Translations under genes and position numbers: made by a program
Notes under the pieces: generated by a model
Database searches by the model: none
Told to the model about the DNA's origin: nothing
What the model saw: the letters and a program-made list of their open reading frames with translations, nothing else
Assembly: GCA_012862495.1 (NCBI GenBank)
Contig: BLSG01000086.1
Location: 327,031-380,665 of the forward strand
Length of the DNA: 53,635 bases
Direction of reading: 5' to 3'
Source of the DNA: Thraustochytrium aureum
Lineage: Eukaryota
Shown: one piece after another, positions 16,920 through 52,917 of the stretch
Position numbering within the stretch: position 1 is the stretch's first letter
Layout of the letters: each line of letters starts with the position of its first letter

Positions 16920-17900
16920 CCCGCGCGCCTCCCGAAGCACCTCCAGGTGCCGCGGGCCGCCGCTTCGACCTCCTCTTCGGGCTCGGGCCCGTCGCCGCCT
17001 CCCCCGCAGCCGCGCTCGGCCCCAGCGCCAGGTTGGCGGTCGGTGGCTGGACGGACGACAGTCGGACGGCCTGATAGACAGATGGATAGAGGGAGTGCCA
17101 AACGGATCGAGAGAGGCCCCCGCCCCAGCGGCTCGGCCGGCAGGCACGCCCGCGCGCTCCACGCCCGCTCGCCGCTATCCCTCGCGCGGACACTACCGAG
17201 CGCCCTGCGCGCCACTCAGCCCTTCGCGACTCCGGCTCTGCCTGCCGCGCTGCGTTGCGTAGTGCTTGCGCCCAGCCGCTCGACTTGGCCCACAGCCCGC
17301 GCGCCGCGTGCGGTTCCACCCTCGATGCACGCTCTTGCGCGCCGCTCGACCCCTCGAATCATCCTCCTGCGCAGCTTTTTCCCCCGACGATCAAAGAGCT
17401 ATTCGGAGATTCTAGCACTGTCTATCTTCAAGTGTCTGACGGCACAGAGGACTCGTTCGATCAAGAGCGACGATGGACAATGCGGTCTTGATGGAGCTGT
17501 GAGCGCGGCGCCTGCATCCGCTATGAAGCAGGTCAGTCGGGGTCGACGGCAGCAGCGCTCAAGGCCTGCCTTCAACTCGCTCGCTTCTCTCGTGTCTGTC
17601 CTGAACATGTTCCAGGGGCGCTGGACGTCCAAGGCACTCAAGACCCGCGAGGCTGATCAGTGGCGGGCGGCGGTGGAGCGACGAGGCCATGTCGTTGTTG
17701 CAGCGAGTGCGCATCAAGTCGCTGCCTCGGCGGCGTGGCGCGCTTCGAGCACCGCTTGCTCTTGGCGGCGACGCGGACCGCGCGGCACGCTGAAGCCGGA
17801 GGCCGGCTGGCCGGGTTTCGGTCCTCCCCGGCCGATTCTGACCGCGCGAACGGCCGGACGCGGCCACGACGAGGCAGGCGTGTGAGGCGCACAGGCCCTG

Positions 17901-20900
17901 ATGGATCCGGAGGAGGAGCGCAAGCTGCTGACGCGGTGCGACCGCGAGCCTATCCACCTGGTGCCCGAGATCCAGGACACGGGCGCGCTTGTCGTCGTTG
18001 ACGTGACCAAGTCGCTCCTCGCCGCAGCGACCTTGCAAGGCGCCGTCCTGGAGCCGCTTGTCGTGCAGGTGAGCGAGAACGTCGAGCGGTTTGGCCTGGC
18101 GAGCCCAAACAAGCTGCTGGGCAAGTCCTTGCTGGACTGGTTTCACGACAAGAGCGACTTTAGCGACTTTTTGCGGCGCGTGCTCATGAAAACTGCTGAT
18201 GCCGGGGGCGTGTACGAGCACACGATCGAGCTGGACGCTTCAGCGGCAGACGGCAGCAGCGGCTTGGTCAACGAGTGGTGGGACAAGTGCTTTACCTACG
18301 ACGCCCACCTGGATTTCCTCAAGCAGTGCAAGCGCAACACCGAGACGGAGCTCCGGGCTTGCACTCGGATCTTGTCCCTCCTCAGCAACCCCAACGGCGA
18401 GGACGACGCAATCCAGCGACTGCACGTTCTCGGCTACGTTGTGCCCCACGGACCGCGCACCCTTATCGCGCTGGAGTTTGAGCCCACGGACGTCCTCTCC
18501 CTGACCAGTTTCGACGCTTGCAACGTGGTCCAGTCGATGACCAATCTCGCCATGGAGCTCTCGACGGCTCGCTCTGAGGCCGAACTGTGCGAGCGCGTCG
18601 TCCACGTCGTGCAAGAGACCACAGAGTACGACCGCGTGATGGTTTACAAGTTTGATGGGAGCGGGCACGGCACAGTCGTCGCGGAGGCGCTGGGCGAGAG
18701 GCTCGACAAACGCCTCGCAAGTTTCGAGGGGCTCAAGTTCCCCCGAGCGGACATTCCACATCAGGCACGCGCCTTGTACATCCGGAACAAGGTTCGCGCG
18801 ATCGCCGACGTGGCGGCGCCGCCCGTCCGCCTGACGCCTGCTGTGATCGACTTGAAGCCCGTCGACATGAGCGATTCGCGGCTCCGTAACCTTGCTGCGG
18901 TCCACCTGCAGTACCTGCGCAACCTTGGGGTGACCGCGTCCGCCTCGGCAAGCATCGTGGTGGAAGGCGAGCTGTGGGGCCTGATCGCGTGCCACCACTG
19001 CTCTGGCCCGCACGAGCTCAACGCGTTTCGGCGCATGCGCCTTATGACCGTGGCCGCCTTGGTGCAAAACAACATGGAGGCGCAGCTCAACAGGGATCGC
19101 CAGGAGTTGCTGCGTCGCGTGCACCGGGCCACGGCTATTCCTGGAGAGCCCCGGGCGCAACCCAGACGACTGTCTGGAAGCGATGGCGGCCGACCTTGCC
19201 AAGATCTTCCGATCCGACGCTGTGTTGCTTGCCACCTACAAGCCGGAGGTGGTGGAGGCCCTGGGCGAGGCCGGCGAGGACGTGCGGCTGACGATTTCGA
19301 AAATTGAAGCCCGCGGCAAGCCAGTCGACGTTGCCTTTGTGCACAAGTGCGCAACCGAGCTCGTCCATCGCTGCAAGAGCAACGGGGACGTGCCCTTCAC
19401 CAGCACGCTGCCCGCCACTCTGCCAGAGCTCTGGGAGCAGTACGAGCACAAGGAGGGCAACATCAAGCCGTGCGGGATCGCTGTCGCGAAGTGCATGGCG
19501 TACGACCTCATCCTCGTTCGCGACGAAATGCGCCGGAACGAGCGCTGGGCGGGAGCTGAAGGGTATCGACTTGGGCTGAGCGGCATCAAAGGCGTGAGGA
19601 AAGGCGAGACTGGGGCAGGCGACTGGAGGGGCGACGACCGGGGCGCAGAGTCCACAGGCGAGACGCGGCTGGAGCCGCGCGCCTCGTTCAAGGCGTACGA
19701 CCAGCAAGTCGTAGACCTGGCCGAGCAATGGCAGAGCGACGAGGTCGAGGGCATCAAGCTCGCGCGGATGCGGCTCCTCGCCGCTGCGGAGCGCGTGCAT
19801 CTAACGAACGCGCGCGTGTCGCTGCGCATCTCCAAGATGACCAAGCAGTTCCTGGCGCACATGAGCCACGAGCTGCGGACCCCGTTCAACGGGATCGTGG
19901 GCATGCTCAGCGTTCTCCTCGAGGACGACTCGCTCCCCGCTCACGTAGGCAAGATGCTGCAGACCGTGAACCGTTCGGCGGAAGCCATGCTCGACATCCT
20001 GGATGACATCCTCACTGTGACGAAGCTTGACGAGGGCAAAATGACGCTGCGCAGCACCCGCTTTTACATGGAAAGCATCTTGGAGGATGTCACCAAGCTG
20101 TTTCAGGTGCGAGCGGACAAGCTCGGCGTGCGGATCTCGTCCGAGGTGGACTCGGCCACGGCGCGCGAAGAGCTCGTCGGCGACGGCGGTCGCATTCGCC
20201 AGGTGCTGCTCAACGTGATCGGCAACGCGCTGCGCTTTGTCCCGGGCAAGACTGGCAGCGTCCGGGTGCACTTCAAGCTGGCGCGCTCCTTCGAGGAGTT
20301 GGTGCCGGACATTGCCAAACTTGAGGAGTCGTATGCGATCGGAACGCACAGCGTGACGCAAATTGTGAACGCCGTCAACAGGTCTTTCCGCGACGCCAAG
20401 GAGCGCTCTCGGAGCGGCGTTTGGCGCGGCGATGAGGCTCCGCAGCTCCAGGCCCCGGAGGCGGCCCCGGTCGCAGCCGCTCGGCGGCCAGAGGGCATGC
20501 AGCGTTGGGCTCTTTTGACAGTGTCAGACGACGGCATAGGGATCGACGCGAGCGGGACTAGCAACCTGTTCCGAAAGTTTTCGCAGCTCGACTCGAGCGT
20601 GAAAAAGTCGTACCAAGGCACCGGGCTCGGGCTGTCCATTTGCTTTCAGCTCTGCCGGCTCATGGGTGGCGCGATCTGGTGCTTTTCGACCAAAGAAAAG
20701 CTGCAGGGCAGCAACGTTGAGGACGGGCAGAGCAAAAAGCGCCGGCGCGTAGAGGCCGCGGACACCTCAAAGTGTGTGGGCACAGCGTTCCAGTTCGTGA
20801 TCCCGCTGCAAGCCGTCGAGGGCGCGCACTCGGAAGGCCTCTCCGGGCTCAGGCCGTGCGAGGACATGGAGACCTCGACCTTCGACGGCCTCGGTGGCGC

Positions 20901-21456
20901 GCGCACGCCGTCGCACCGAACAGATGAGACGATGGCGGCGAGCTCCAGCGCCCAGACAAGTGCCTCTGCGGGATCGCCTCCTCAAGCAGTTGGCTTTGAC
21001 ACTTCTCTCGCAGAGCAATCGGCCAGCATTCGGCTCGTGCAAGGCCTCAGCACTTCAGAGGAGCACATCCTCTCGGAGGCCTGCAAGTCACTGCAAAGGA
21101 TCGTGCTGGCTGCAGATGACAACGAGGTGAACCGTGCAGTGCTGCAGAGCACGTTTGAGCGCAAGATCCCGGAAGTGCAGCTCGCGATTTTCGAGGGGGG
21201 CGCCTCCGCGCTGAGGGCGTCCAAGCACCTCGACGAGCCCAAGGTCGCGGCAGTCCTGCTCGACCATCACATGCCAGACCTCAGTGGGGTGGAGGCTGGT
21301 GTGCTCATCCGCAAGCGGTTCCCCAACACGCCGATCTACATCATCACGGCGGACTGCTCGATTACTGCTGAGCAGGTGCAGCGTTTGGGTCTCACCGGCG
21401 TCGTGCACAAGCCGGTGTCCGTGATGAAGATCCGCAGCCTGCTCCCAAACCTCTGA
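17901..21456 (+). CDS. Phytochrome hybrid sensor histidine kinase (PAS-GAF-PHY-HisKA-HATPase-REC); one frameshift near 19139
   Basis: LTRCDREPIH (N-terminal bilin Cys), YDRVMVYKF, FPRADIPHQARALY (DIP), HLQYLRNLGV, LWGLIACHH, WAG...LEPRASF (PHY tongue), FLAHMSHELRTPFNGIVG, QVLLNVIGNALRF, VSDDGIGI, GTGLGLSIC, and receiver ADDN...LLDHHMP...ITAD...HKP. Deleting one base in ATTCCTG joins the two ORFs (RATAI-LESPGRNPDDCLEAMAAD). Confidence 0.92.
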
Positions 21457-29589: not shown

Positions 29590-31017
29590 ATGTCGCCCAG
29601 CCAAGCGCTGACGCGCGCAAGCTCGCTTGCTGCGCTCGTGCGATGGGCCAAGGCGAACGCGGTGTGGTTCCTGACCAGCGAGGTGCTGCAGCGGGTCGTG
29701 CAACGCGTCGCAGGCTGGACGGGCTCGCGTGGCAAGAGGTTTGCCGTTTTTGTGTGCGCTTCTGACCCGCACAGCCTGGTCCTCCTCGAAGGGCTGCGGG
29801 TGCTCCTGGAGAGGTATGCAGTCGAGGCAGAGGTGCACGTAGTGCGCGAGACCGCGGAGGAGGGGCTTGCAGCGTACGCAGCTGATCCAGAGCAGCAATT
29901 CGCTTGGCGGATCCACGATGCGCAGCTGCTCGCTGGGGTGTACGCCGACCTCGGCATCAAGGGCGTGCCAGCACAGAAAGAGCACCCTGACGCTGGTGTA
30001 GCCAAAGAGGGCGCAGAGCTGCTCGCCGCTGCGCTTGGCGGCCGCCGCGTGGGGCGCGCAGACGACCCGCGCCTTGCCGCGGGCATCGAGATCAGCCGCG
30101 CCACATTGCTGGGCAGCCTCGCCACGGCCCGCGCGGCCCTGGACGCACTCGACGGCTCGGCTCTCGGCGGCCGCGAGCGGCTGGACCACCTCAGCAAGTC
30201 GGCGGGGCTGCTCGCCTCCAGAGGCCAGTACTTGTCGGCGACCGCGCGGTACGGCGCCGAGTGGTTTTGGGGCCTAGACAGACTTCGCTTCCTGGAGACC
30301 CAGCTGTCAGAACTGGGACACAATCGACTGGGAGCCAACGAGCCGGCCATATTCACGCGCACGCGCATGCCGTCGGCAAAGTCTCTGGCGCGCGAGCACA
30401 GGGCGCTCCGCGGCGCCGCCTCGCGACGCGCCGACCTCCCTCACATCGAACTGTTTTACTCGTTCCGTTCACCATACTCGCAGGTAGTTCTGCGGCCGCT
30501 CTTTGCAATGGCCGACTTTTACGGCGTCGCGGTCGAGCTGCGCCCTGTGCTGCCCATGGTCATGCGCGGCTTGGAGGTCCCGCTCGCCAAAAAGCTCTAC
30601 ATCGTGCGAGATGCGGCTCGCCTGGCGCGCGAGGCATCCTGGTCGCACTACGGCTGCTTGAACGATCCGGTGGGAACGCCCACCGAGTTTGCCTTTGCTC
30701 TCTTCTCCCATGCGGACGACCAAGGCCTTGGGCGACAGTTTTTGCTCTCCTGGTCAACAGAGGTCTACTGCTCTGGAACCGATGCGGTGACCCGCGAGGG
30801 CCTCGAGCGCATCTGTGACCGGGCGGGTTTTCGCTTCTCAGCGGCCTTGCTCGACTCTGACCGCTGGCGCGGCCGCGCAGACGCCAACAAAGCCCGGATG
30901 TTGGACTTGGGTCTTTGGGGCGTTCCCACACTGCGGTTCGGTTCCACGGCGGTTTGGGGGCAAGACCGCCTCTTCTGCATCGAGCGCGAGGTCCGCGCCG
31001 CCTTGGCATCCTCGTGA
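29590..31017 (+). CDS. Two-domain 2-hydroxychromene-2-carboxylate isomerase / DsbA (GST-kappa)-like protein
   Basis: C-terminal domain IELFYSFRSPYS...LRPVLPMVMRGLEVP...LGLWGVPTLRFGSTAVWGQDRL. The N-terminal domain ends YGAEWFWGLDRLRFLE. Intronless. Confidence 0.85.
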   Translation: MSPSQALTRASSLAALVRWAKANAVWFLTSEVLQRVVQRVAGWTGSRGKRFAVFVCASDPHSLVLLEGLRVLLERYAVEAEVHVVRETAEEGLAAYAADPEQQFAWRIHDAQLLAGVYADLGIKGVPAQKEHPDAGVAKEGAELLAAALGGRRVGRADDPRLAAGIEISRATLLGSLATARAALDALDGSALGGRERLDHLSKSAGLLASRGQYLSATARYGAEWFWGLDRLRFLETQLSELGHNRLGANEPAIFTRTRMPSAKSLAREHRALRGAASRRADLPHIELFYSFRSPYSQVVLRPLFAMADFYGVAVELRPVLPMVMRGLEVPLAKKLYIVRDAARLAREASWSHYGCLNDPVGTPTEFAFALFSHADDQGLGRQFLLSWSTEVYCSGTDAVTREGLERICDRAGFRFSAALLDSDRWRGRADANKARMLDLGLWGVPTLRFGSTAVWGQDRLFCIEREVRAALASS

Positions 31018-32943: not shown

Positions 32944-35900
32944 TCACGGGCTCTCGGGAAGCGGCATCTGCGGCAGCTGGTACGAGATGTCCGAAGTGTC
33001 GTGGCGGTACAAGCCCGCCTTGAGGCGGCGCTGGTCGTAGTAGTGACCCATGAAGCCCACGGACCGGCCCAGGACAAAGAGGCCGTTGAGCGTGCCATTC
33101 TCGATGACTTCATCGACCTCCTCGGCGGTGAAGGAGCCGCAGCTCCGCATGAGGTCCACAAAGCAGACCGCGATACAGCCGTCCACATTGAGGATCAGGT
33201 TGGCCTTCTTCTTGGTGGTGAGCTTCTCCACCTCCAGAGCGAAATCAAGAATCTCGGTGCTCTTGAAGTGCTTGATGGCGTACTCCTTGATGATGCTGAC
33301 GCGCATGTCCGGGTTGGTGATGCTCTTGACCTTGTGGCCGATCCCGTGAATGAGCTGGCGCGAAGTCCGCATTGACGAGACAAAATGCTCTGGCGAGTCG
33401 CCGCGGTCCACGGCATCGCGGAACGTGGTGGCGGCCTCGTCGAGGGCGCCGCCAAAGCGTGGGCCAATGGTCAGCAAGCCGCTGACGAGCGAGGAGATGA
33501 GGTCCTTGCCGGCGCGCGCGCACACGATAGTGTTGTGCGCCCCCGACACGGAGGGGCCGTNNNNNNNNNNNNNNNNNNNNNNNNNNNNNNNNNNNNNNNN
33601 NNNNNNNNNNNNNNNNNNNNNNNNNNNNNNNNNNNNNNNNNNNNNNNNNNNNNNNNNNNNNNNNNNNNNNNNNNNNNNNNNNNNNNNNNNNNNNNNNNNN
33701 NNNNNNNNNNNNNNNNNNNNNNNNNNNNNNNNNNNNNNNNNNNNNNNNNNNNNNNNNNNNNNNNNNNNNNNNNNNNNNNNNNNNNNNNNNNNNNNNNNNA
33801 GTGACCATGAGCACCATCTCAATAAACTTGGTGGCGTAAATCGGAAGGCGGCGCTTGAACCAGAGCAGGCTGAGCACGCCGCCGATGCCAATGTCCTCCT
33901 TGAACACCTGGCTGATAGGCATGCCCGAGTAGAGGAGCTCTTCGCCGCGGTCGTCGCAGATGGTCGTCACGAAGGAGGCAGGCTTGCGGATGAGCCCAAG
34001 AGACTTTGCCCAGTCAAAGTCCATCGGCACCTTGGGGACGGGAGGCTCGGGCTGCTCCGTGATCAGGCCCTGCGCCTTCATCTTGCGGTACACCGCGCCA
34101 AGCAGGTCGCCAAACTTGGCGAACGAGTTGGGCACAAAGGCGCCGGCCTTCTTCAGCGCAGTGTTCTTGGCCGCCGCGGTCTCGGCGAGCCCGTTCGCGA
34201 GCGCGCCCGCGTGGCCAAACTGCACCTCGGTGTTGAACGCAGAGCCGCAGACGCCGATGCACCACGCCACGACAGGCTTGGTGATGCGGCCCGAGGCGAT
34301 GGCCTCGATCACCTTGTACTCCTCGATGCCGCCGACCTCCCGAGCAGCACGAGGATCTTGACGTTCGGGTCGTCGTTGAAGCGGAGCAGGTGCCCAAGAA
34401 AGTTGCTGCCAGGGTAGCGGTCCCCGCCGATGGCGATCCCCTCGTAGACCCCGTTGGTGGTCTGCGAGATGATGTTGTTGAGCTCGTTGCTCATGCCTCC
34501 GCTACGCGAGACGTACGCCACGGAGCCTGGCCGGTACAGCTTGGAGGAGATCACGTTGGAGATCTTGCCGGCCGTGTTGCCAATGCGAAAGCAGCCCGGC
34601 TTGATTCCGCCCACAGTGGCGGGCCCGATCAGGGTCACGCCCTTGCGGTCTGCCTCGCGAATGAGGAGGCGCGCCTGCTGTTCCGGGATCCCCCTCGGCG
34701 ATGATGGCCACTACGCGCAGCTGTTCGCTGTGCTGGAGAGCCTCCATGGTAGCCGAGTAGGCCGAGCGAAAGCTGGCAAAGTTGACCATGATGTCGACGT
34801 CGGGGTTTTTCTTGAGCGCCTCATCGAGGTGGGTGAAGACGGGGATGAGCATCTCGTCCTTGCCAAAGTAGAACTTTTGCGAGTGGTTGCCCGAAAACGG
34901 GAACACCATGGCAGCCACCGAGGGGAGCTCGCGCTTGCAGAGAAAGTCAAAGTCGAGCATCTCCTGCACGGCGCGGTGCTGCAGGCCGTACACCACAGCC
35001 CGCGTCGTGTTTGAGAAGAGCGGCTTTGCGTGGTCGGCGGCAGGCTTGTTGTTGCTGCTGGGCGGGACGTACTCGGCGTACTTGATCTCGCCCAGGTCGG
35101 CGCCCGCGTCGACTGCGTCGGACGGCGCGTAGCCGAGCGCGCGCGGGACAACGCCGACAATGTTGTCGTCGGGCCCGTACACGTGCATCGGCACGCCGAT
35201 GCGCTTGCCCACGGCGCGCATCATCTCGAGGCCTTCCTCAAAGTTGGGGCCGCCGCGACGCACCCAGATCTCCACTTTGCCCTTGATGAGCTTGGGGGCG
35301 AACTCGGTGAGCGCGCGAACGATGCCCTTGAACGTCTTGGCCACGTCGGTGAAGTTGGCGATGCCGCCGCCAATGATGAGGACCTTGCCGCGGTCGTCCT
35401 CGGTGCGCGTCATGAGGTCCAGGAGGCTTCGGGCGTACTCGAAGGTCATCTCCTCGCTGGGGGCCCCAGAGTACTCGCCATAGTTTGCCAGCTCGTGGCC
35501 CGCGCCGTGGTCGCAGATTGTGTCCGCGTAGACCACAGAAGCGCCGCCGCCGGCAACCATGGTCACACGCGGCCCTTCGGGTTGAGCACGGTCAGCTTGA
35601 GCGAGGCCCCGGTCTTGCCGTCCAGTTCGTGGATGTACTGCTCGGCGGGCAGCAGCGGGCGCCCGAAGGGGGCGGAAATTCGAACTCGCCCCACTTGGAC
35701 TCGCACAGAAACGCGGCCGTTTCGTCGATCTTGGCCGCCAGGTCGAGCGGGATCACGCCTTCCTTGCAGACCACGATGGGGTTGATCTCCAGGTAGGCAA
35801 AGTGCAGCTCGCGGTACGTCTTGAGCAGGGCCACCACGAAGCCCGACACGCGCTCGCGCACGGCGTCGTCCTTGATGTTGAACAGCAGCTTGGCGCACAG

Positions 35901-39185: not shown

Positions 39186-42135
39186 ATGGCTGCGACGAGG
39201 AGCACCAGCGCGAGCAAGCTGCGGCAGCTCGCGCAGCAGATCGATATGGACGAGCAGCGGCAGGCGCGCCGAATCGAAACCCTGAATCGGGAGATTCGCA
39301 CCTTGCGCGAGGAAAAGGACGACGTCGAGGAGCGACTGGCAGAGGCCGGGGACGAAAAAAAGGTCCAAGACGAGCTGATCAGCGCGCTCCGGACCCAGCT
39401 CGACGAGGCCAAGGCGCGGGCGAAAGAGGTGGAGGAGCGCTTCGCGCACGAGATTATAGGGCTGCGATTCGAGCTCGCTGAAACTTGCCAAGCGCTTCGA
39501 AAGTCGAACCACAAAGAGGCAATCTCGCGCGAGCTCCGAGGGGAAAGCGAGCCAGGTGATCGCGATGGGACGAGCAGCGCCGCGCGCGACGGCCCGAGCT
39601 TGACGGGGGCAGGGCTGTCCCTCTTCTCCGCAGAATCGCTGATCCACGGCGCAGACCCGGACCTTATGCTCCCTGGCGCGTTCGTGGACGCGGCCAGGCG
39701 CGGCCTGAGCGGGGTGGTTCGCAGCGTGCTCAAGCCGGAGGCCAACCAGAACGCAAAGAACGCCTGCGCGACACGCTCGGGCAGGCCCTGCTCGAGCTAT
39801 GCGCTCAGGGCACCGCGGCGCTCGATACCATCAAGATGTTGCTCGAGTACGGCGCGGACCCCAGCGTGGCCAAGCCCGCCGCCGAGGGTGGCCGCACAGC
39901 GCTCCACGTGGCTGCCGCCAAAGGCAGCAAGGAGCTTGTCGACATGCTTCTTGGTTGCGCGAGCGTCGAGATCGATCGTGTGGACGCGCGTGGGAGAACC
40001 GCTCTGCACCTCTCGGCCCGGCTCCGAAAAGCCGAGGCGAGCAAGGCACTGCTGATGAAGGGCGCAGACCAGAGCATCCCGACGCCCGAGGGCCATACGG
40101 CGCGCGACCTCGCCCTCAACAGCGACGGCGCGGGATCCTTTTCTCTCTCGTTCGCGCCGATGAACATCAAACAGGTGTTCGAGAGCCCGTCGGTCCGGTT
40201 TTGGAACAGCTCGGCGCTCGCGTTGCGCCGGTACCGCGAGGAGCGATGGACGGATGCCATGGACGCCTTCACGAGCGCCGTGGATCTGGCCAAGGCAAAC
40301 CCGCGCGTTGCCGGCAAGAACAACTTGGCGCGACTGTACTACAATCGCGCGAGGCTCTCGGTCAAGCTGGGCGAAATTCTCCAAGCGCTTGAGGATTGCA
40401 ACGAGGCGCTCAACTTGGACGAGGCGTACACTAACGCCCTTGAGATCCGAGCCGACTGCCACTGGTCCTTGTTCGATTTCGAGAGGGCCGCTGCGGACTT
40501 TGACACGCTGCGCGACCAGGCCACCGACCCGGCCAAGAGGGCGGAGTGGAGCAAGCGGCACGCCGAGTCGCGCCGATGCAGTGAGGCCTCGCATTACCAG
40601 GTCCTCGGCTTGGCCAAGCGCGCCACCGCGGCGGAGATCAAGCGCGCCTTCCGCGCAGAGTCGATCAAGTGGCACCCGGACAAGCACGCGCGATCCCACG
40701 AGGACGCCCACCGCGCTCGCAAGCAGTTTCAGCGAATCAACGAGGCGCGCGAGGTCCTGCTCAACGCAAACCAACGTATCGTTTACGACGCGGGGCAAGG
40801 CTTCGGGAGCAACAGGTCGTACTTTTTCGACGACGACCTCTACGACCTCTCTGACGACGAGGAGGACGACCGAGGCGCGGGGCGTGCCGCTCGGGGGGCT
40901 GCTCGTGCGAGCGCCTTTCCGTGGAACGACAAGGTGCTCTCCACGCCGCTCCACGAAGCGAAACACTCGTACAAGGAGCGCCAGCTCGAAAAGGAGAAAG
41001 CTGTCGCTGCCGCCTCAGCAGCAGCAGCAGCAACAGAAGCCGCCGAGGCGCAAGCCGCCAGGTCTGCAACCGCAGCGGCTGCTAGTCGAATGTCGTCGGA
41101 GCGCGCCCCGGAGCACCAAAAGCCTGGTGGCCTCAACGCGAAGCCCGAGTTTGGCGCCGCAACTGAAACTGCGGCAGCCGCCCCACCTGCCCCGCCCGCG
41201 TTTACGTCGACGTCGGCGTCGACGTCGGCGTCGGCGCCGGCCACTGCGCCGATGACTGGCAGAGNNNNNNNNNNNNNNNNNNNNNNNNNNNNNNNNNNNN
41301 NNNNNNNNNNNNNNNNNNNNNNNNNNNNNNNNNNNNNNNNNNNNNNNNNNNNNNNNNNNNNNNNNNNNNNNNNNNNNNNNNNNNNNNNNNNNNNNNNNNN
41401 NNNNNNNNNNNNNNNNNNNNNNNNNNNNNNNNNNNNNNNNNNNNNNNNNNNNNNNNNNNNNNNNNNNNNNNNNNNNNNNNNNNNNNNNNNNNNNNNNNNN
41501 NNNNNNNNNNNNNNNNNNNNNNNNNNNNNNNNNNNNNNNNNNNNNNNNNGGGACGGCGTCGATGCTTCGATCCCTCGAGGCATACAAGGAGGCCATCTTG
41601 CGCAACGAAGCGATGGCTTTCAGCGAGGAGGACCCGTGGGGAGCGAGCTTTGAGGCCCTCCTTGGGGGACCTAGGGAAGCGCTACGGATTTCCACGCGTG
41701 GACGGCAGCGAGGACGAGGAGGACTCGAGCACGAACGAGGTGGAAGGCGGCGAGCAAGAAAGCGACTCTGAGGGTAACCTCCAAGACGAAACGGAGTACG
41801 CGCATCACTTTGCTCGCAAGTTCGGGTTTGGGGTGCACTTGACTCAGCCCCGGGGCGAAAAAAGTGCAACGTCTGCCGCTGGTGATATGGCGGGCGCGAG
41901 CGCCTCGTCGTCAGCGTCGTCTACGACCCCCTCATCCTCGTTGGACGGGGACGATCTGGAGCGTCGAACAACTGCAGACTCGCCCACTCCACCTCCCGCG
42001 GTGCCGGGAGCAAAGGCTGTCCCTCTCGCCGGTGAAGAGCACTTTTCGCCAGGCGCGTTCTCGGCAAAGCCAACAACGCCAAAGTCTGGCGGCCGGAGCC
42101 GCCGAGCGCGCAACCGCAAGCGCGGCACGCACTGA
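39186..42135 (+). CDS. Coiled-coil + ankyrin + TPR + DnaJ-domain co-chaperone; frameshifts near 39800 and 41670, one gap
   Basis: Ankyrin repeats (MLLEYGADPS, GRTALHVAA, GRTALHLSA, GHTARDLA), TPR-like segments (ARLYYNRA...ALEDCNEALNLD), J-domain HYQVLGL...EIKRAFR...KWHPDKH...FQRINEAREVL, and an acidic/low-complexity tail. Confidence 0.85.
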
Positions 42136-44049: not shown

Positions 44050-44699
44050 CAGTGGCCGCAACGAGTCCCGTGAAGCAAGTGGCAGGCTCAATCGCCCACA
44101 CTGCGCGAGAGTCGGAGCCGCCCGTGCTCAGTGCTGTAGGCCCTGGCTCCGTCAACCAAGCCGTCAAAGCGGTGGCCATCGCGCGTTCCTACCTCGAGGC
44201 CGAAGGCATCGACCTTGTGGTGGAAGTAATGCGCGACGAGTCAGGCGGGGAAATCAAGGACCTCATCTTGTTCAACCTGAAAAAGGTCATAGTGCGGCCC
44301 CACCCCAAAGGCGTTGAATACCAGAACCTCAAGTCGGCTGGCAAGTCTGGAACCAGCCAGCTCGCTGGCGCTATCGCCAAGAACCTGCGCGAGAACAAGC
44401 GCATCAAGATCACCGCCGTCGGCCAGAACCCCGTTTTCCGCGCCGTGGACGCCATCGTCTTTGCGCGAAAGTATCTCAATGTAAGTCTAGCTCTGGTTCG
44501 CCTCGCTCGCCGCGCTCGCCCCGGCCCTGCCCTGCCCGACCCGCTTCGCTGACTGGTTTGGTTTTCGATCCCAACGTTGCGAACGTCTCAGGACGATGGC
44601 ATCGACCTTGACTTCCAGCCCGAGTTCACTCACGTCACATTTGCCAACGGAACAGAGGCAAACGCCATACAGCTCATCATCCTGTCGCACCAGGTTTGA
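44050..44699 (+). CDS. Tandem SpoVS-domain protein, 5'-partial (gap); exons <44050-44480 and 44592-44699
   Basis: VAATSPVKQVAGSIA...SAVGPGSVNQAVKAVAIARSYLEAEGIDL and KSAGKSGTSQLAGAIAKNL...TAVGQNPVFRAVDAIVFARKYLN. Removing the phase-0 intron adds DDGIDLDFQPEFTHVTFANGTEANAIQLIILSHQV*, which completes the second SpoVS domain. Confidence 0.88.
44481..44591 (+). other. 111-nt spliceosomal intron in the SpoVS-like gene
   Basis: GTAAGT donor, GCTGAC branch motif (44548-44553), CAG acceptor; removal restores the domain in frame. Confidence 0.9.
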
Positions 44700-46443: not shown

Positions 46444-48300
46444 AGCTCGAGACTGGAGTACGGTGCCCACGGTACGCCTTGCTCGATCCAACCAGCCTCC
46501 GTCCACCGGCTCGAGCATCGAGCGATCATCCGACACGATCATCGAGGCGCGAACACAGGCTATCCGTCTTTCGTCACTCGACGTGCGGTTGCTGCTTCCA
46601 TCGTGCTACCTGCGCGGTCGTGCCTGGTGGGCTGTAGCGCATCGGACACGAGCCCCGCGGAGGACTACACGGGCATCGTTGCGCTTTGTTTGGAGCGAAT
46701 CGACCTAGGGACCAGGACTTTGACTTGCAGAGCCGTTGGCCGAGATTCGTCGCAGCCACGCACCCGCACATCTGCATCAAGTGCAACGAGGGGTTCAGGG
46801 CTCCGGGATGTGACGAGCCATTAACGACAACAGACGCTTTAGCGCGGCCCAATTGCTTGTTTCGCTTGGACTGCGAACATTCGCTCAAAGGCCGAACACA
46901 CGCAGCTCGAGGCTGACTCCGGAGGCACGAGCATCGCGCGCAGCGACCCTTTGAGAAGCAAGATCGCAGGGAGGCTGTCGGTCTTGCAAGGGAAGAGGCG
47001 GACGCTTGGCGCGCGCGGCAGGCAACATGTTCGCTCGCGAGAGCCTGGACGTGACGCGCAACTCTCCAGCCAGGGTGGGACTTGGTCACTGCCTTCGTTG
47101 CCGTCGGCACGGCGCTGCTTGCGATTTGCGATTCGCGCCTTGCTATGCGGGTGATCGTGGCCAAGAGGCTCAAGCATGTTCCAGAACGTGCCGCAGCTCG
47201 CAAGAACGTCGCAATTCACATTTCTGCCCTTGGGATCGCGCAGAATATCACTTGCGTGCTGCCCCCTCGCGAGACCACACGAATCTACGCGGGCGCCGTT
47301 CTACTTATATATATTTCAGTTCATGATCGGGATGATTCGCATCTCCAAGTGGATCGAAGGACTCCGCACTGTGATCAAGTCGACCCAAATGCTCAAGATC
47401 ATCAAAGTCTCCGCAAGCAGTGTCGAGGCCAGGAACGCCTACTTTGTGCAAGTGCCGTTCTACGCCCTCCTGGTCGCTTTTACGGTGGTCTTCGTGCCGG
47501 ACTCGGGTATCGCAGACCCGCGACAGCGAACGATGTTTGCATTTGCGTGGCTCTTTCGCGCCATCAACGGCGTTGCCATCATTCCAATGACTATCTGGTC
47601 GTCACAAACCCCATGTTTGGTCGCTGGGCGCTCGCGCCAATCAGCGGTGTGCCGTGCGCCGCTGATTCAGATGGGGTGCAGAAGCGAAACGAACTTCTGG
47701 GCGCAATTCGAAAGAAGGTCGTCCGTCATGCTCACCGTTTTCTTCGTCACGGCGCCTTTGATGGCCATTCCACTCTTTGGTACGTTTTCAATTTTCGCGC
47801 TTTACGCTCGGCAGGGTGGCGATCGCTGACGGGGAGGCGGGGCGACCTTTTCGCGCAGCCGCACTTGCCTTTTCGGAAGCGGCCTACAAGCCGACTTTCT
47901 ACAAGGTTGGTTGTCATGGTGTACCCGGTGTTTTGCTCGCTTCAGCTTGAGGTGCTCTTCCCCGTCAGCTTTTGGAGAGCCAAGAGCTCGGCAGCACGTC
48001 CAACGACCCAGGTTGTGCCGGTCTCAGGCGCAACGCGGTCGGCCAAGACTATCTCGAAGAACGAACGCAGCCATCGCGAGAGTTGCCAAGTATTGTTCCT
48101 ACATTGCCGCTTTGATGCAGAACCCCGCTTGCTCTGCCGACAGTCCAGCAATCGAAACGCAGTCGCATCAGTCATCTCCTTGGCCGGCCGCTGCCAGGGA
48201 GCGCACCGCACCGAGCTTGTGTGCAGCCGGCCTACGAGAAGTCGTGCTCAAAGGGCCCGCAGCAGCTGCGCTTGCCAGGAGAAAACCAAACCGGCTCAGC
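46408..48300 (+). pseudogene. Fragmented or degenerate multi-pass membrane protein with a Cys-rich N-terminal segment
   Basis: Protein-like pieces in shifting frames: CIKCNEGFRAPGCDEP, LVTAFVAVGTALLAIC, FYLYIFQFMIGMI, VPFYALLVAFTVVFV, MFAFAWLFRAINGVAII, VMLTVFFVTAPLMAIPLFGTFSIFAL. No continuous ORF. Confidence 0.35.
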
Positions 48301-52163: not shown

Positions 52164-52729
52164 ATCGGCGCTCGTCGCGAGAAGACGCGGACCTGAGCAC
52201 CACTGGGCGGTGTGAGCGAGTCCAACCAATCTGTGGCGCGCTCACTGCGAGCGATGTTCACGACGTGCGCAGGCGAGCGCGAGCGCCAAGCCGTCGTTCG
52301 TNNNNNNNNNNNNNNNNNNNNNNNNNNNNNNNNNNNNNNNNNNNNNNNNNNNNNNNNNNNNNNNNNNNNNNNNNNNNNNNNNNNNNNNNNNNNNNNNNNN
52401 NNNNNNNNNNNNNNNNNNNNNNNNNNNNNNNNNNNNNNAGCTTGTTGGCACAAAGCAGCTTGTTGCCAAGGGATCGCTATTCCAGGGAAATACTCGTGGA
52501 CGGTTTCAGGCGGCCCTTTCACTTGCTTGGTTCCTGGCGCGCTGTGCTCCTTCTCGCGGACGGCTCGGGTCGTGGCCGGCTCGGGTCTTGGCGGGTCGTG
52601 GCCAGCTCGAGCGAGACTCGCGCATCGCCGGACACATTTTCCGCAATTCCGACGTAGAGAGGGGCACAGAATAGGGTCGGTCATAATCTTGCAAAAACAA
52701 TTCTCGTTAACCGAATGGTGCAAACCTAC

Positions 52730-52882
52730 GCCCGTGTAACTCGTACGTTTTACTCAATTTGCTGGTGGTGGTGTCGCGCGATCACCTCTGACGTTAGAAT
52801 CCCGAATTGTGCCCTCGCAGAGTTGGTTTAGAGTGTCTGGCTTATGACCAGAAAGTCGCGGGTTCGACCCCCGCCACGAGCA
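52730..52882 (+). tRNA. tRNA-Ile(UAU) split by a 78-nt intervening sequence between positions 13 and 14 (exons 52730-52742 and 52821-52882)
   Basis: Joined sequence: GCCCGTG TA ACTC AGTTGGTTTA GAGT G TCTGG CTTATGA CCAGA AAGTC GCGGG TTCGACC CCCGC CACGAGC A. D, anticodon and T stems pair perfectly, the acceptor stem pairs 6/7 (C3:A70), and U8, A14, the D-loop GG and the B-box are present. Confidence 0.9.
52743..52820 (+). other. Spliceosomal-type (GT-AG) intron within the tRNA-Ile gene
   Basis: Begins GTACGT, contains CTCTGAC (A at 52791) and ends TTGTGCCCTCGCAG. The junction cannot slide. Confidence 0.75.
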
Positions 52883-52902: not shown

Positions 52903-52917
52903 TTTTTTTTTCTTTTT
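52903..52917 (+). terminator. Oligo-T RNA polymerase III terminator-like tract
   Basis: T9-C-T5 beginning 21 nt after the tRNA discriminator base. Confidence 0.7.

Follow-up and report, generated by a model that had tools for sequence, protein, structure and literature searches.

The window, the whole stretch of 53,635 nucleotides of Thraustochytrium aureum DNA analysed here, contains a tRNA-Ile(UAU) gene (52730-52882) in which an insert of 78 nt separates position 13 of the tRNA from position 14. This split arrangement is confirmed as a real feature, and the signals carried by the insert indicate that it is likely removed by the major spliceosome, giving rise to a working tRNA-Ile(UAU). The detached 5' piece of 13 nt pairs with the acceptor 3' strand in six of seven positions and with the D-stem 3' strand in four of four. 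This pairing had been put forward in the first-pass annotation and was reproduced; the coordinates and motifs listed there for the split gene were likewise all recovered when the sequence was re-read by script (Table 1). Within the 5' exon, C3 is located opposite A70, resulting in a mismatch, and A10 opposite U25. The anticodon loop is uninterrupted, with no intron at 37/38, and the insert divides the A box. A lenient A-box-like match extends across the 3' junction, but a stretch of 250 nt contains five matches of this kind. The longest T run inside the insert comprises four residues, and no second copy of the insert is present anywhere in the window.

Table 1. Coordinates of the split tRNA-Ile(UAU) gene, of the mRNA-type intron used for comparison and of related metagenome loci
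Feature	Position	Strand	Remarks
5' exon, tRNA positions 1-13	52730..52742	+	acceptor 5' strand, U8 A9, D-stem 5' strand
78-nt insert at 13/14	52743..52820	+	read as major-class (U2-type) spliceosomal intron
5' splice-site-like GTACGT	52743..52748	+	GTAAGT in the RNA-confirmed mRNA intron
Branch-site-like CTGAC	52788..52792	+	A52791 as predicted branch point; distance to the 3' end of the insert 29 nt
3' splice-site-like CAG	52818..52820	+	
3' exon, tRNA positions 14-73	52821..52882	+	D-loop, T-arm, acceptor 3' strand, discriminator A
Anticodon TAT	52843-52845	+	within 3' exon; G37 present
B box	52862-52870	+	intact, within T-arm of 3' exon
Run of 9 T	52903..52911	+	likely RNA polymerase III terminator, 20 nt past the tRNA
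mRNA-type GT..AG intron, 111 nt, for comparison	44481..44591	+	spliced in RNA assemblies
Bathycoccus-like tRNA-Asn(GUU) loci			L010, L013, L035, L049, L087, L113, L115 and 13 more
tRNA-Asn(GUU), example locus	L063:1990-2116	-	GT..AG insert class of 52-58 nt, at 13/14
tRNA-Thr(AGU)	L122:240-362		50-nt GTGAGT..CTAAC..CAG insert at 13/14

As it stands, the window does not yield any tRNA when searched with ARAGORN, and the only Rfam match at the locus, which is also the sole Rfam match in the entire window, covers the 3' part of the gene (52817-52874, corresponding to model positions 10-63, with 30.6 bits). The gene is thus missed by standard finders; the first-pass annotation had expected such genes to be called truncated pseudogenes. 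It had also expected a tRNA finder to recognise the spliced sequence and, once the insert is cut out in silico, ARAGORN calls a tRNA-Ile(TAT) with a restored cloverleaf, in which the invariant bases are present and C3·A70 is the one mismatch. By itself, ARAGORN does not pick out the GT..AG cut. Rescoring of 462 cut pairs around the junction gave 205 that pass the default threshold and eight that attain the top threshold; one of these eight is the GT..AG cut and, by inspection, it is the sole cut that keeps A14.

A set of 117 distinct Ile(UAU) genes without interruption, derived from 120 viral-collection loci sampled out of about 1900, served for comparison with the restored tRNA. The pair A10-U25 is found in 21 of these genes, G10-C25 in 92. 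Since the less common pair bridges the insert, the two halves of the gene match each other. The possibility that G37 marks decay was discarded, as 56 of the 117 genes have this base. The C3·A70 mismatch occurs in a single one of them (1/117), and the six closest uninterrupted genes display T3-A70 in five cases and C3-G70 in one. This mismatch may represent early decay of the tRNA-Ile(UAU) gene. Taken further, the gene could be a dead or dying copy with an intron-like piece that is spliced poorly or never, the function being served by another, uninterrupted gene. Besides the rarity of the mismatch, the split A box would fit such a copy, as would the rare use of AUA (4 of 98 Ile codons in eight ORFs of the window) and hence weak selection. 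However, the remainder of the cloverleaf is intact, including A10-U25 across the insert, as are the B box, the terminator and all three splice signals. Moreover, the exons of a Bathycoccus-like tRNA-Asn described below are nearly frozen while their insert drifts, so that an architecture of this kind can be under selection. Decay to a non-functional copy is therefore regarded as unlikely.

An assembly artefact or a chance juxtaposition of the two pieces is already largely refuted and scarcely credible. The window contains 15 N runs, and comparison with RNA contigs revealed single-base indels at 39747, 41664 and 53592; the assembly of the window is thus likely to carry small errors, which could be held to favour an artefact. 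However, the tRNA gene is covered in full by a 434-nt contig from DNA run X1, with no listed difference inside 52730-52882 and several differences in the flanks, giving the assembly support looked for, with the qualification that X1 may be the source sample. Contigs of runs X2-X4 cover the neighbouring gene and do not reach the tRNA, a gap that carries no information on its expression. A contig shared by X5 and X6, which give identical tables and probably represent one data set, aligns at 52451-52752 with eight differences in 302 letters and stops 10 nt into the insert. To assess chance, the 313 nt preceding the 3' piece were subjected to dinucleotide shuffling 5000 times: 61 shuffled sequences contained a 5' piece with a score of 12 of 13 or better, and in just two was such a piece followed by GT. 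In addition, the same anatomy is present in other organisms.

The insert displays the hallmarks of U2-type introns, namely a GT 5' site, a CTRAC branch motif at normal distance and a 3' YAG. Its signals had been likened to those of the mRNA intron at 44481-44591 (GTAAGT / GCTGAC / CAG), and this likeness holds. In contigs from runs X2 and X3, precisely 44481-44591 is missing and 44480 is joined to 44592, which indicates that X2 and X3 are RNA and that the host splices this intron; it is the one RNA-confirmed intron on which the comparison with the host consensus rests. The branch context reads CTCTGAC in the tRNA insert versus GCTGAC in the mRNA intron, the distance from the branch A to the 3' end is 29 nt versus 39 nt, and the pyrimidine share is similar (0.61 versus 0.58). 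One AG of the insert is situated directly after the branch site. The window as a whole appears intron-poor. A putative 79-nt GT..CTGAC..CAG stretch at 47780-47858 (+) starts with eight bases identical to those of the tRNA insert. As a relative of the insert this stretch was rejected, since the likeness is insignificant (353 of 1000 shuffles score equally high).

In principle, the insert could be released by the tRNA splicing endonuclease acting elsewhere than at its canonical site, in the manner of Cyanidioschyzon, archaea and the nucleomorph of Guillardia, in which case the GT/AG ends would be coincidental. Algae are known to have non-canonical tRNA introns, and a review of such genes describes many in the Guillardia nucleomorph without a defined bulge-helix-bulge (BHB) motif (PMC3978253). 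At the tRNA-Ile junction a BHB is absent, with 0 of 4 pairs in the central helix and 1 of 10 in total. The nine intron-containing tRNA genes called by ARAGORN in one archaeal genome served as positive control, and in seven of the nine the same script detected at least 8 of 10 pairs; the claim that no BHB can be built at the junction is thereby upheld. Of 304 cut pairs nearby, a single one (52745-52825) gives a BHB-like placement, which, however, would remove A14 together with the GG of the D-loop and is absent from the top cuts of ARAGORN. The eight related inserts of the metagenome tRNA-Asn and tRNA-Thr genes reach 2-5 of 10. Furthermore, the inserts of three unrelated genes (Ile, Asn, Thr) share a GT start, G at +5 and CTRAC-like motifs, whereas the archaeal control introns have no fixed end sequences. 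Cleavage by the endonuclease is thus considered very improbable. A self-splicing group I or group II intron was ruled out, given that the insert measures 78 nt and a ribozyme core several hundred nucleotides, and Rfam detects nothing but the tRNA over the insert region.

The first-pass annotation had proposed a search for further tRNA halves split by GT...AG inserts, and these were found in metagenome genes for tRNA-Asn and tRNA-Thr. The pattern used for scanning consisted of a tRNA body with AG before position 14 and any anticodon. It thereby forces the 13/14 site and the final AG, while GT, branch motif and 5' piece lie outside the pattern; the shared 13/14 site is imposed by the search and does not point to a hot spot. 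The metagenome scan returned at least 120 of about 130 loci. Scores were obtained for 119, and 107 of these have at least 80 nt upstream; one locus (L065), whose acceptor strand ran off the contig, was left out of the tally. Among the 119 scored loci of the matches listed, a detached and well-pairing 5' piece is present in 26, and in 21 of these GT follows. These GT-type loci among the matches listed comprise 20 tRNA-Asn and one tRNA-Thr. The other five loci with a detached piece continue with AG, and their break accordingly lies elsewhere than at 13/14. In prokaryotic genomes the same pattern matched 32 loci, two with detached pieces and none (0/32) with GT, and viral scans for the split form gave three distinct places, in none of which GT comes after a detached 5' piece.

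The 20 tRNA-Asn(GUU) loci represent one orthologous gene in seven insert variants of 52-58 nt and are counted as such, not as 20 independent cases. Next to 11 of these 20 loci lies a gene with 82-87% identity to a protein of Bathycoccus prasinos. All seven inserts share GTAAGA at the start, CTAA internally and AG at the end; CTAAA replaces CTAAC in five of the seven variants, and one variant ends with AAG. In total, 29 of 58 insert columns vary versus 2 of 74 exon columns, which are plain counts over related sequences. From this pattern, the insert architecture of tRNA-Asn(GUU) can be kept under selection, the signals appearing fixed while the rest drifts. After removal of the inserts, all 22 genes, including that of the window, are called as tRNAs. 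For the locus with the tRNA-Thr(AGU) gene (L122), ARAGORN with intron search miscalls a tRNA-Gly. Three further loci (L016, L072 and L129, the last a Woesearchaeota record) contain a tRNA-Thr(UGU) with about 29 extra nucleotides that form a D-loop hairpin, for which the script found no BHB placement.

Within each of the nine distinct inserts the longest T run amounts to 3-5 residues and is always shorter than the downstream T run of 5-9, as read-through by polymerase III would need. Alternatively, the spliceosome could act on a capped RNA polymerase II transcript from which the tRNA is subsequently cut out. Such a route would agree with the interrupted A box, with the description of spliceosomal introns for mRNAs and other polymerase II transcripts in a 2025 paper (PMC12530127), and with the T5 runs within two of the tRNA-Asn inserts, which could stop polymerase III. 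However, a T run of the polymerase III type is situated close downstream in all nine distinct genes, the B box is intact, and with U6 there is a precedent among polymerase III transcripts, as reviewed in PMC5855946. The polymerase II route is accordingly given little credence.

In the proposed pathway, RNA polymerase III would transcribe the leader, the 5' exon, the insert and the 3' exon as far as the T9 run, relying on the intact B box and on upstream DNA, given that the A box is split. GUACGU and CUGAC of the insert would be recognised by U1 and U2, respectively; excision would release the insert as a lariat with its branch at A52791 and ligate C13 to A14. The cloverleaf is predicted to close after splicing and not before, which would place splicing ahead of RNase P/Z trimming and CCA addition. 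The spliced product would then read the rare AUA codon. Maturation of the tRNA via the spliceosome, as inferred in the first-pass annotation, is supported by the lack of a BHB, by the host-intron-like signals and by the conserved inserts of the same type elsewhere. Beyond the single gene, it is likely, though somewhat less so, that these inserts belong to an unrecognised class of tRNA introns in unrelated eukaryotes, including a labyrinthulomycete and Bathycoccus-like green algae; these introns would be removed by the spliceosome from polymerase III pre-tRNAs, and their genes would systematically be missed or called truncated pseudogenes.

Apart from the tRNA gene, the window contains a phytochrome-like sensor (17886-21453, +; GAF, PHY, histidine kinase and receiver) that extends across two frames, in a host that is likely non-photosynthetic. 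A fused-type ATP citrate lyase is encoded at 34505-35752 (-), its frame apparently being broken near the 3' end; in a tree it is located outside the oomycete/ochrophyte and opisthokont clades, together with Durusdinium-labelled proteins. At 29590-31017 (+) lies a gene for a DsbA/HCCA-isomerase-like protein shared with thraustochytrids, with best named relatives in Hondaea fermentalgiana (39%) and Mucochytrium quahogii (38%) and otherwise bacterial or environmental proteins as nearest relatives; it may stem from an old gene transfer. On the basis of this one protein with named relatives, the host is likely to belong to the labyrinthulomycetes.

Introns with canonical splice signals are known from another polymerase III transcript, U6, in many fungi (Tani & Ohshima 1989, 1991; Canzler et al. 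2016, as reviewed in PMC5855946). Like these, the tRNA inserts are short, possess a canonical 5' site, branch and 3' site, and reside in a structured non-coding RNA made by polymerase III. Further points of likeness are that fungal U6 introns are otherwise unconserved in sequence and were probably gained repeatedly. Unlike U6, the host RNA here is a tRNA, for which a protein-only splicing pathway of its own exists. In addition, the insert cuts the internal A box, whereas the U6 intron of S. pombe holds a B box, and the hosts of the tRNA inserts are not fungi. A tRNA, in contrast to U6, is no component of the spliceosome, and the explanation of gain by closeness to the active site is not directly applicable. 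Nevertheless, by analogy with the fungal U6 genes, the insert likely originated by intron gain in a non-coding gene. The U1, U2 and U5 snRNA of Rhodotorula and the rDNA of ascomycetes are transcribed by polymerases II and I, respectively. Spliceosomal introns have also been noted in Rhodotorula U1, U2 and U5 snRNA and in ascomycete rDNA (PMC5855946); these, too, are spliceosomal introns in non-messenger RNA, albeit in different host RNAs.

Canonical tRNA introns, whose removal depends on TSEN, are situated at 37/38 and are described for Tyr-GUA and Ile-UAU as well as for Leu-CAA (PMC12530127). The gene reported here shares with them that it is a nuclear tRNA gene and that Ile-UAU is among the usual intron carriers; it differs in the position of the insert at 13/14, in the GT/branch/AG signals and in the absence of a 37/38 intron. 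Non-canonical introns of the BHB type and permuted tRNA genes are reported for archaea, Cyanidioschyzon merolae, Mamiellales and nucleomorphs (PMC3978253). Here the break likewise lies outside the anticodon loop and the genes are overlooked by standard tRNA finders; as mentioned above, the low BHB score at the junction sets the insert apart from the archaeal controls. According to the same review, green algae possess almost no tRNAs with ectopic introns, in contrast to the insert of the Bathycoccus-like tRNA-Asn. The word 'tRNA' is absent from the main text of the Bathycoccus genome paper (PMC3491373).

The three nuclear intron types are treated as apparently unrelated in the 2025 paper (PMC12530127), and tRNA splicing is held to be independent of the spliceosome in a current review (PMC13149111). 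No description of spliceosomal introns in tRNA genes was found in the literature searched, where a passing mention in a genome paper is possible. The insert most likely represents an mRNA-type intron residing in a tRNA, a host RNA for which no report was found, the U6 introns being the known precedent.

If the proposed removal is correct, a tRNA dependent on the spliceosome would link the pathways of mRNA splicing and tRNA splicing, and the gene would offer a natural substrate for splicing of a polymerase III transcript with a leader and a first exon of 13 nt. It would also lend itself to the question of how a gene whose A box is split can be transcribed. The easiest system for testing the idea is the Bathycoccus-like tRNA-Asn with the same kind of insert; Bathycoccus has been cultured and its genome sequenced (PMC3491373). 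Moreover, tRNA sets of eukaryotes would be under-annotated and, provided that the class as a whole is real, some of the tRNAs used for decoding would depend on mRNA splicing.
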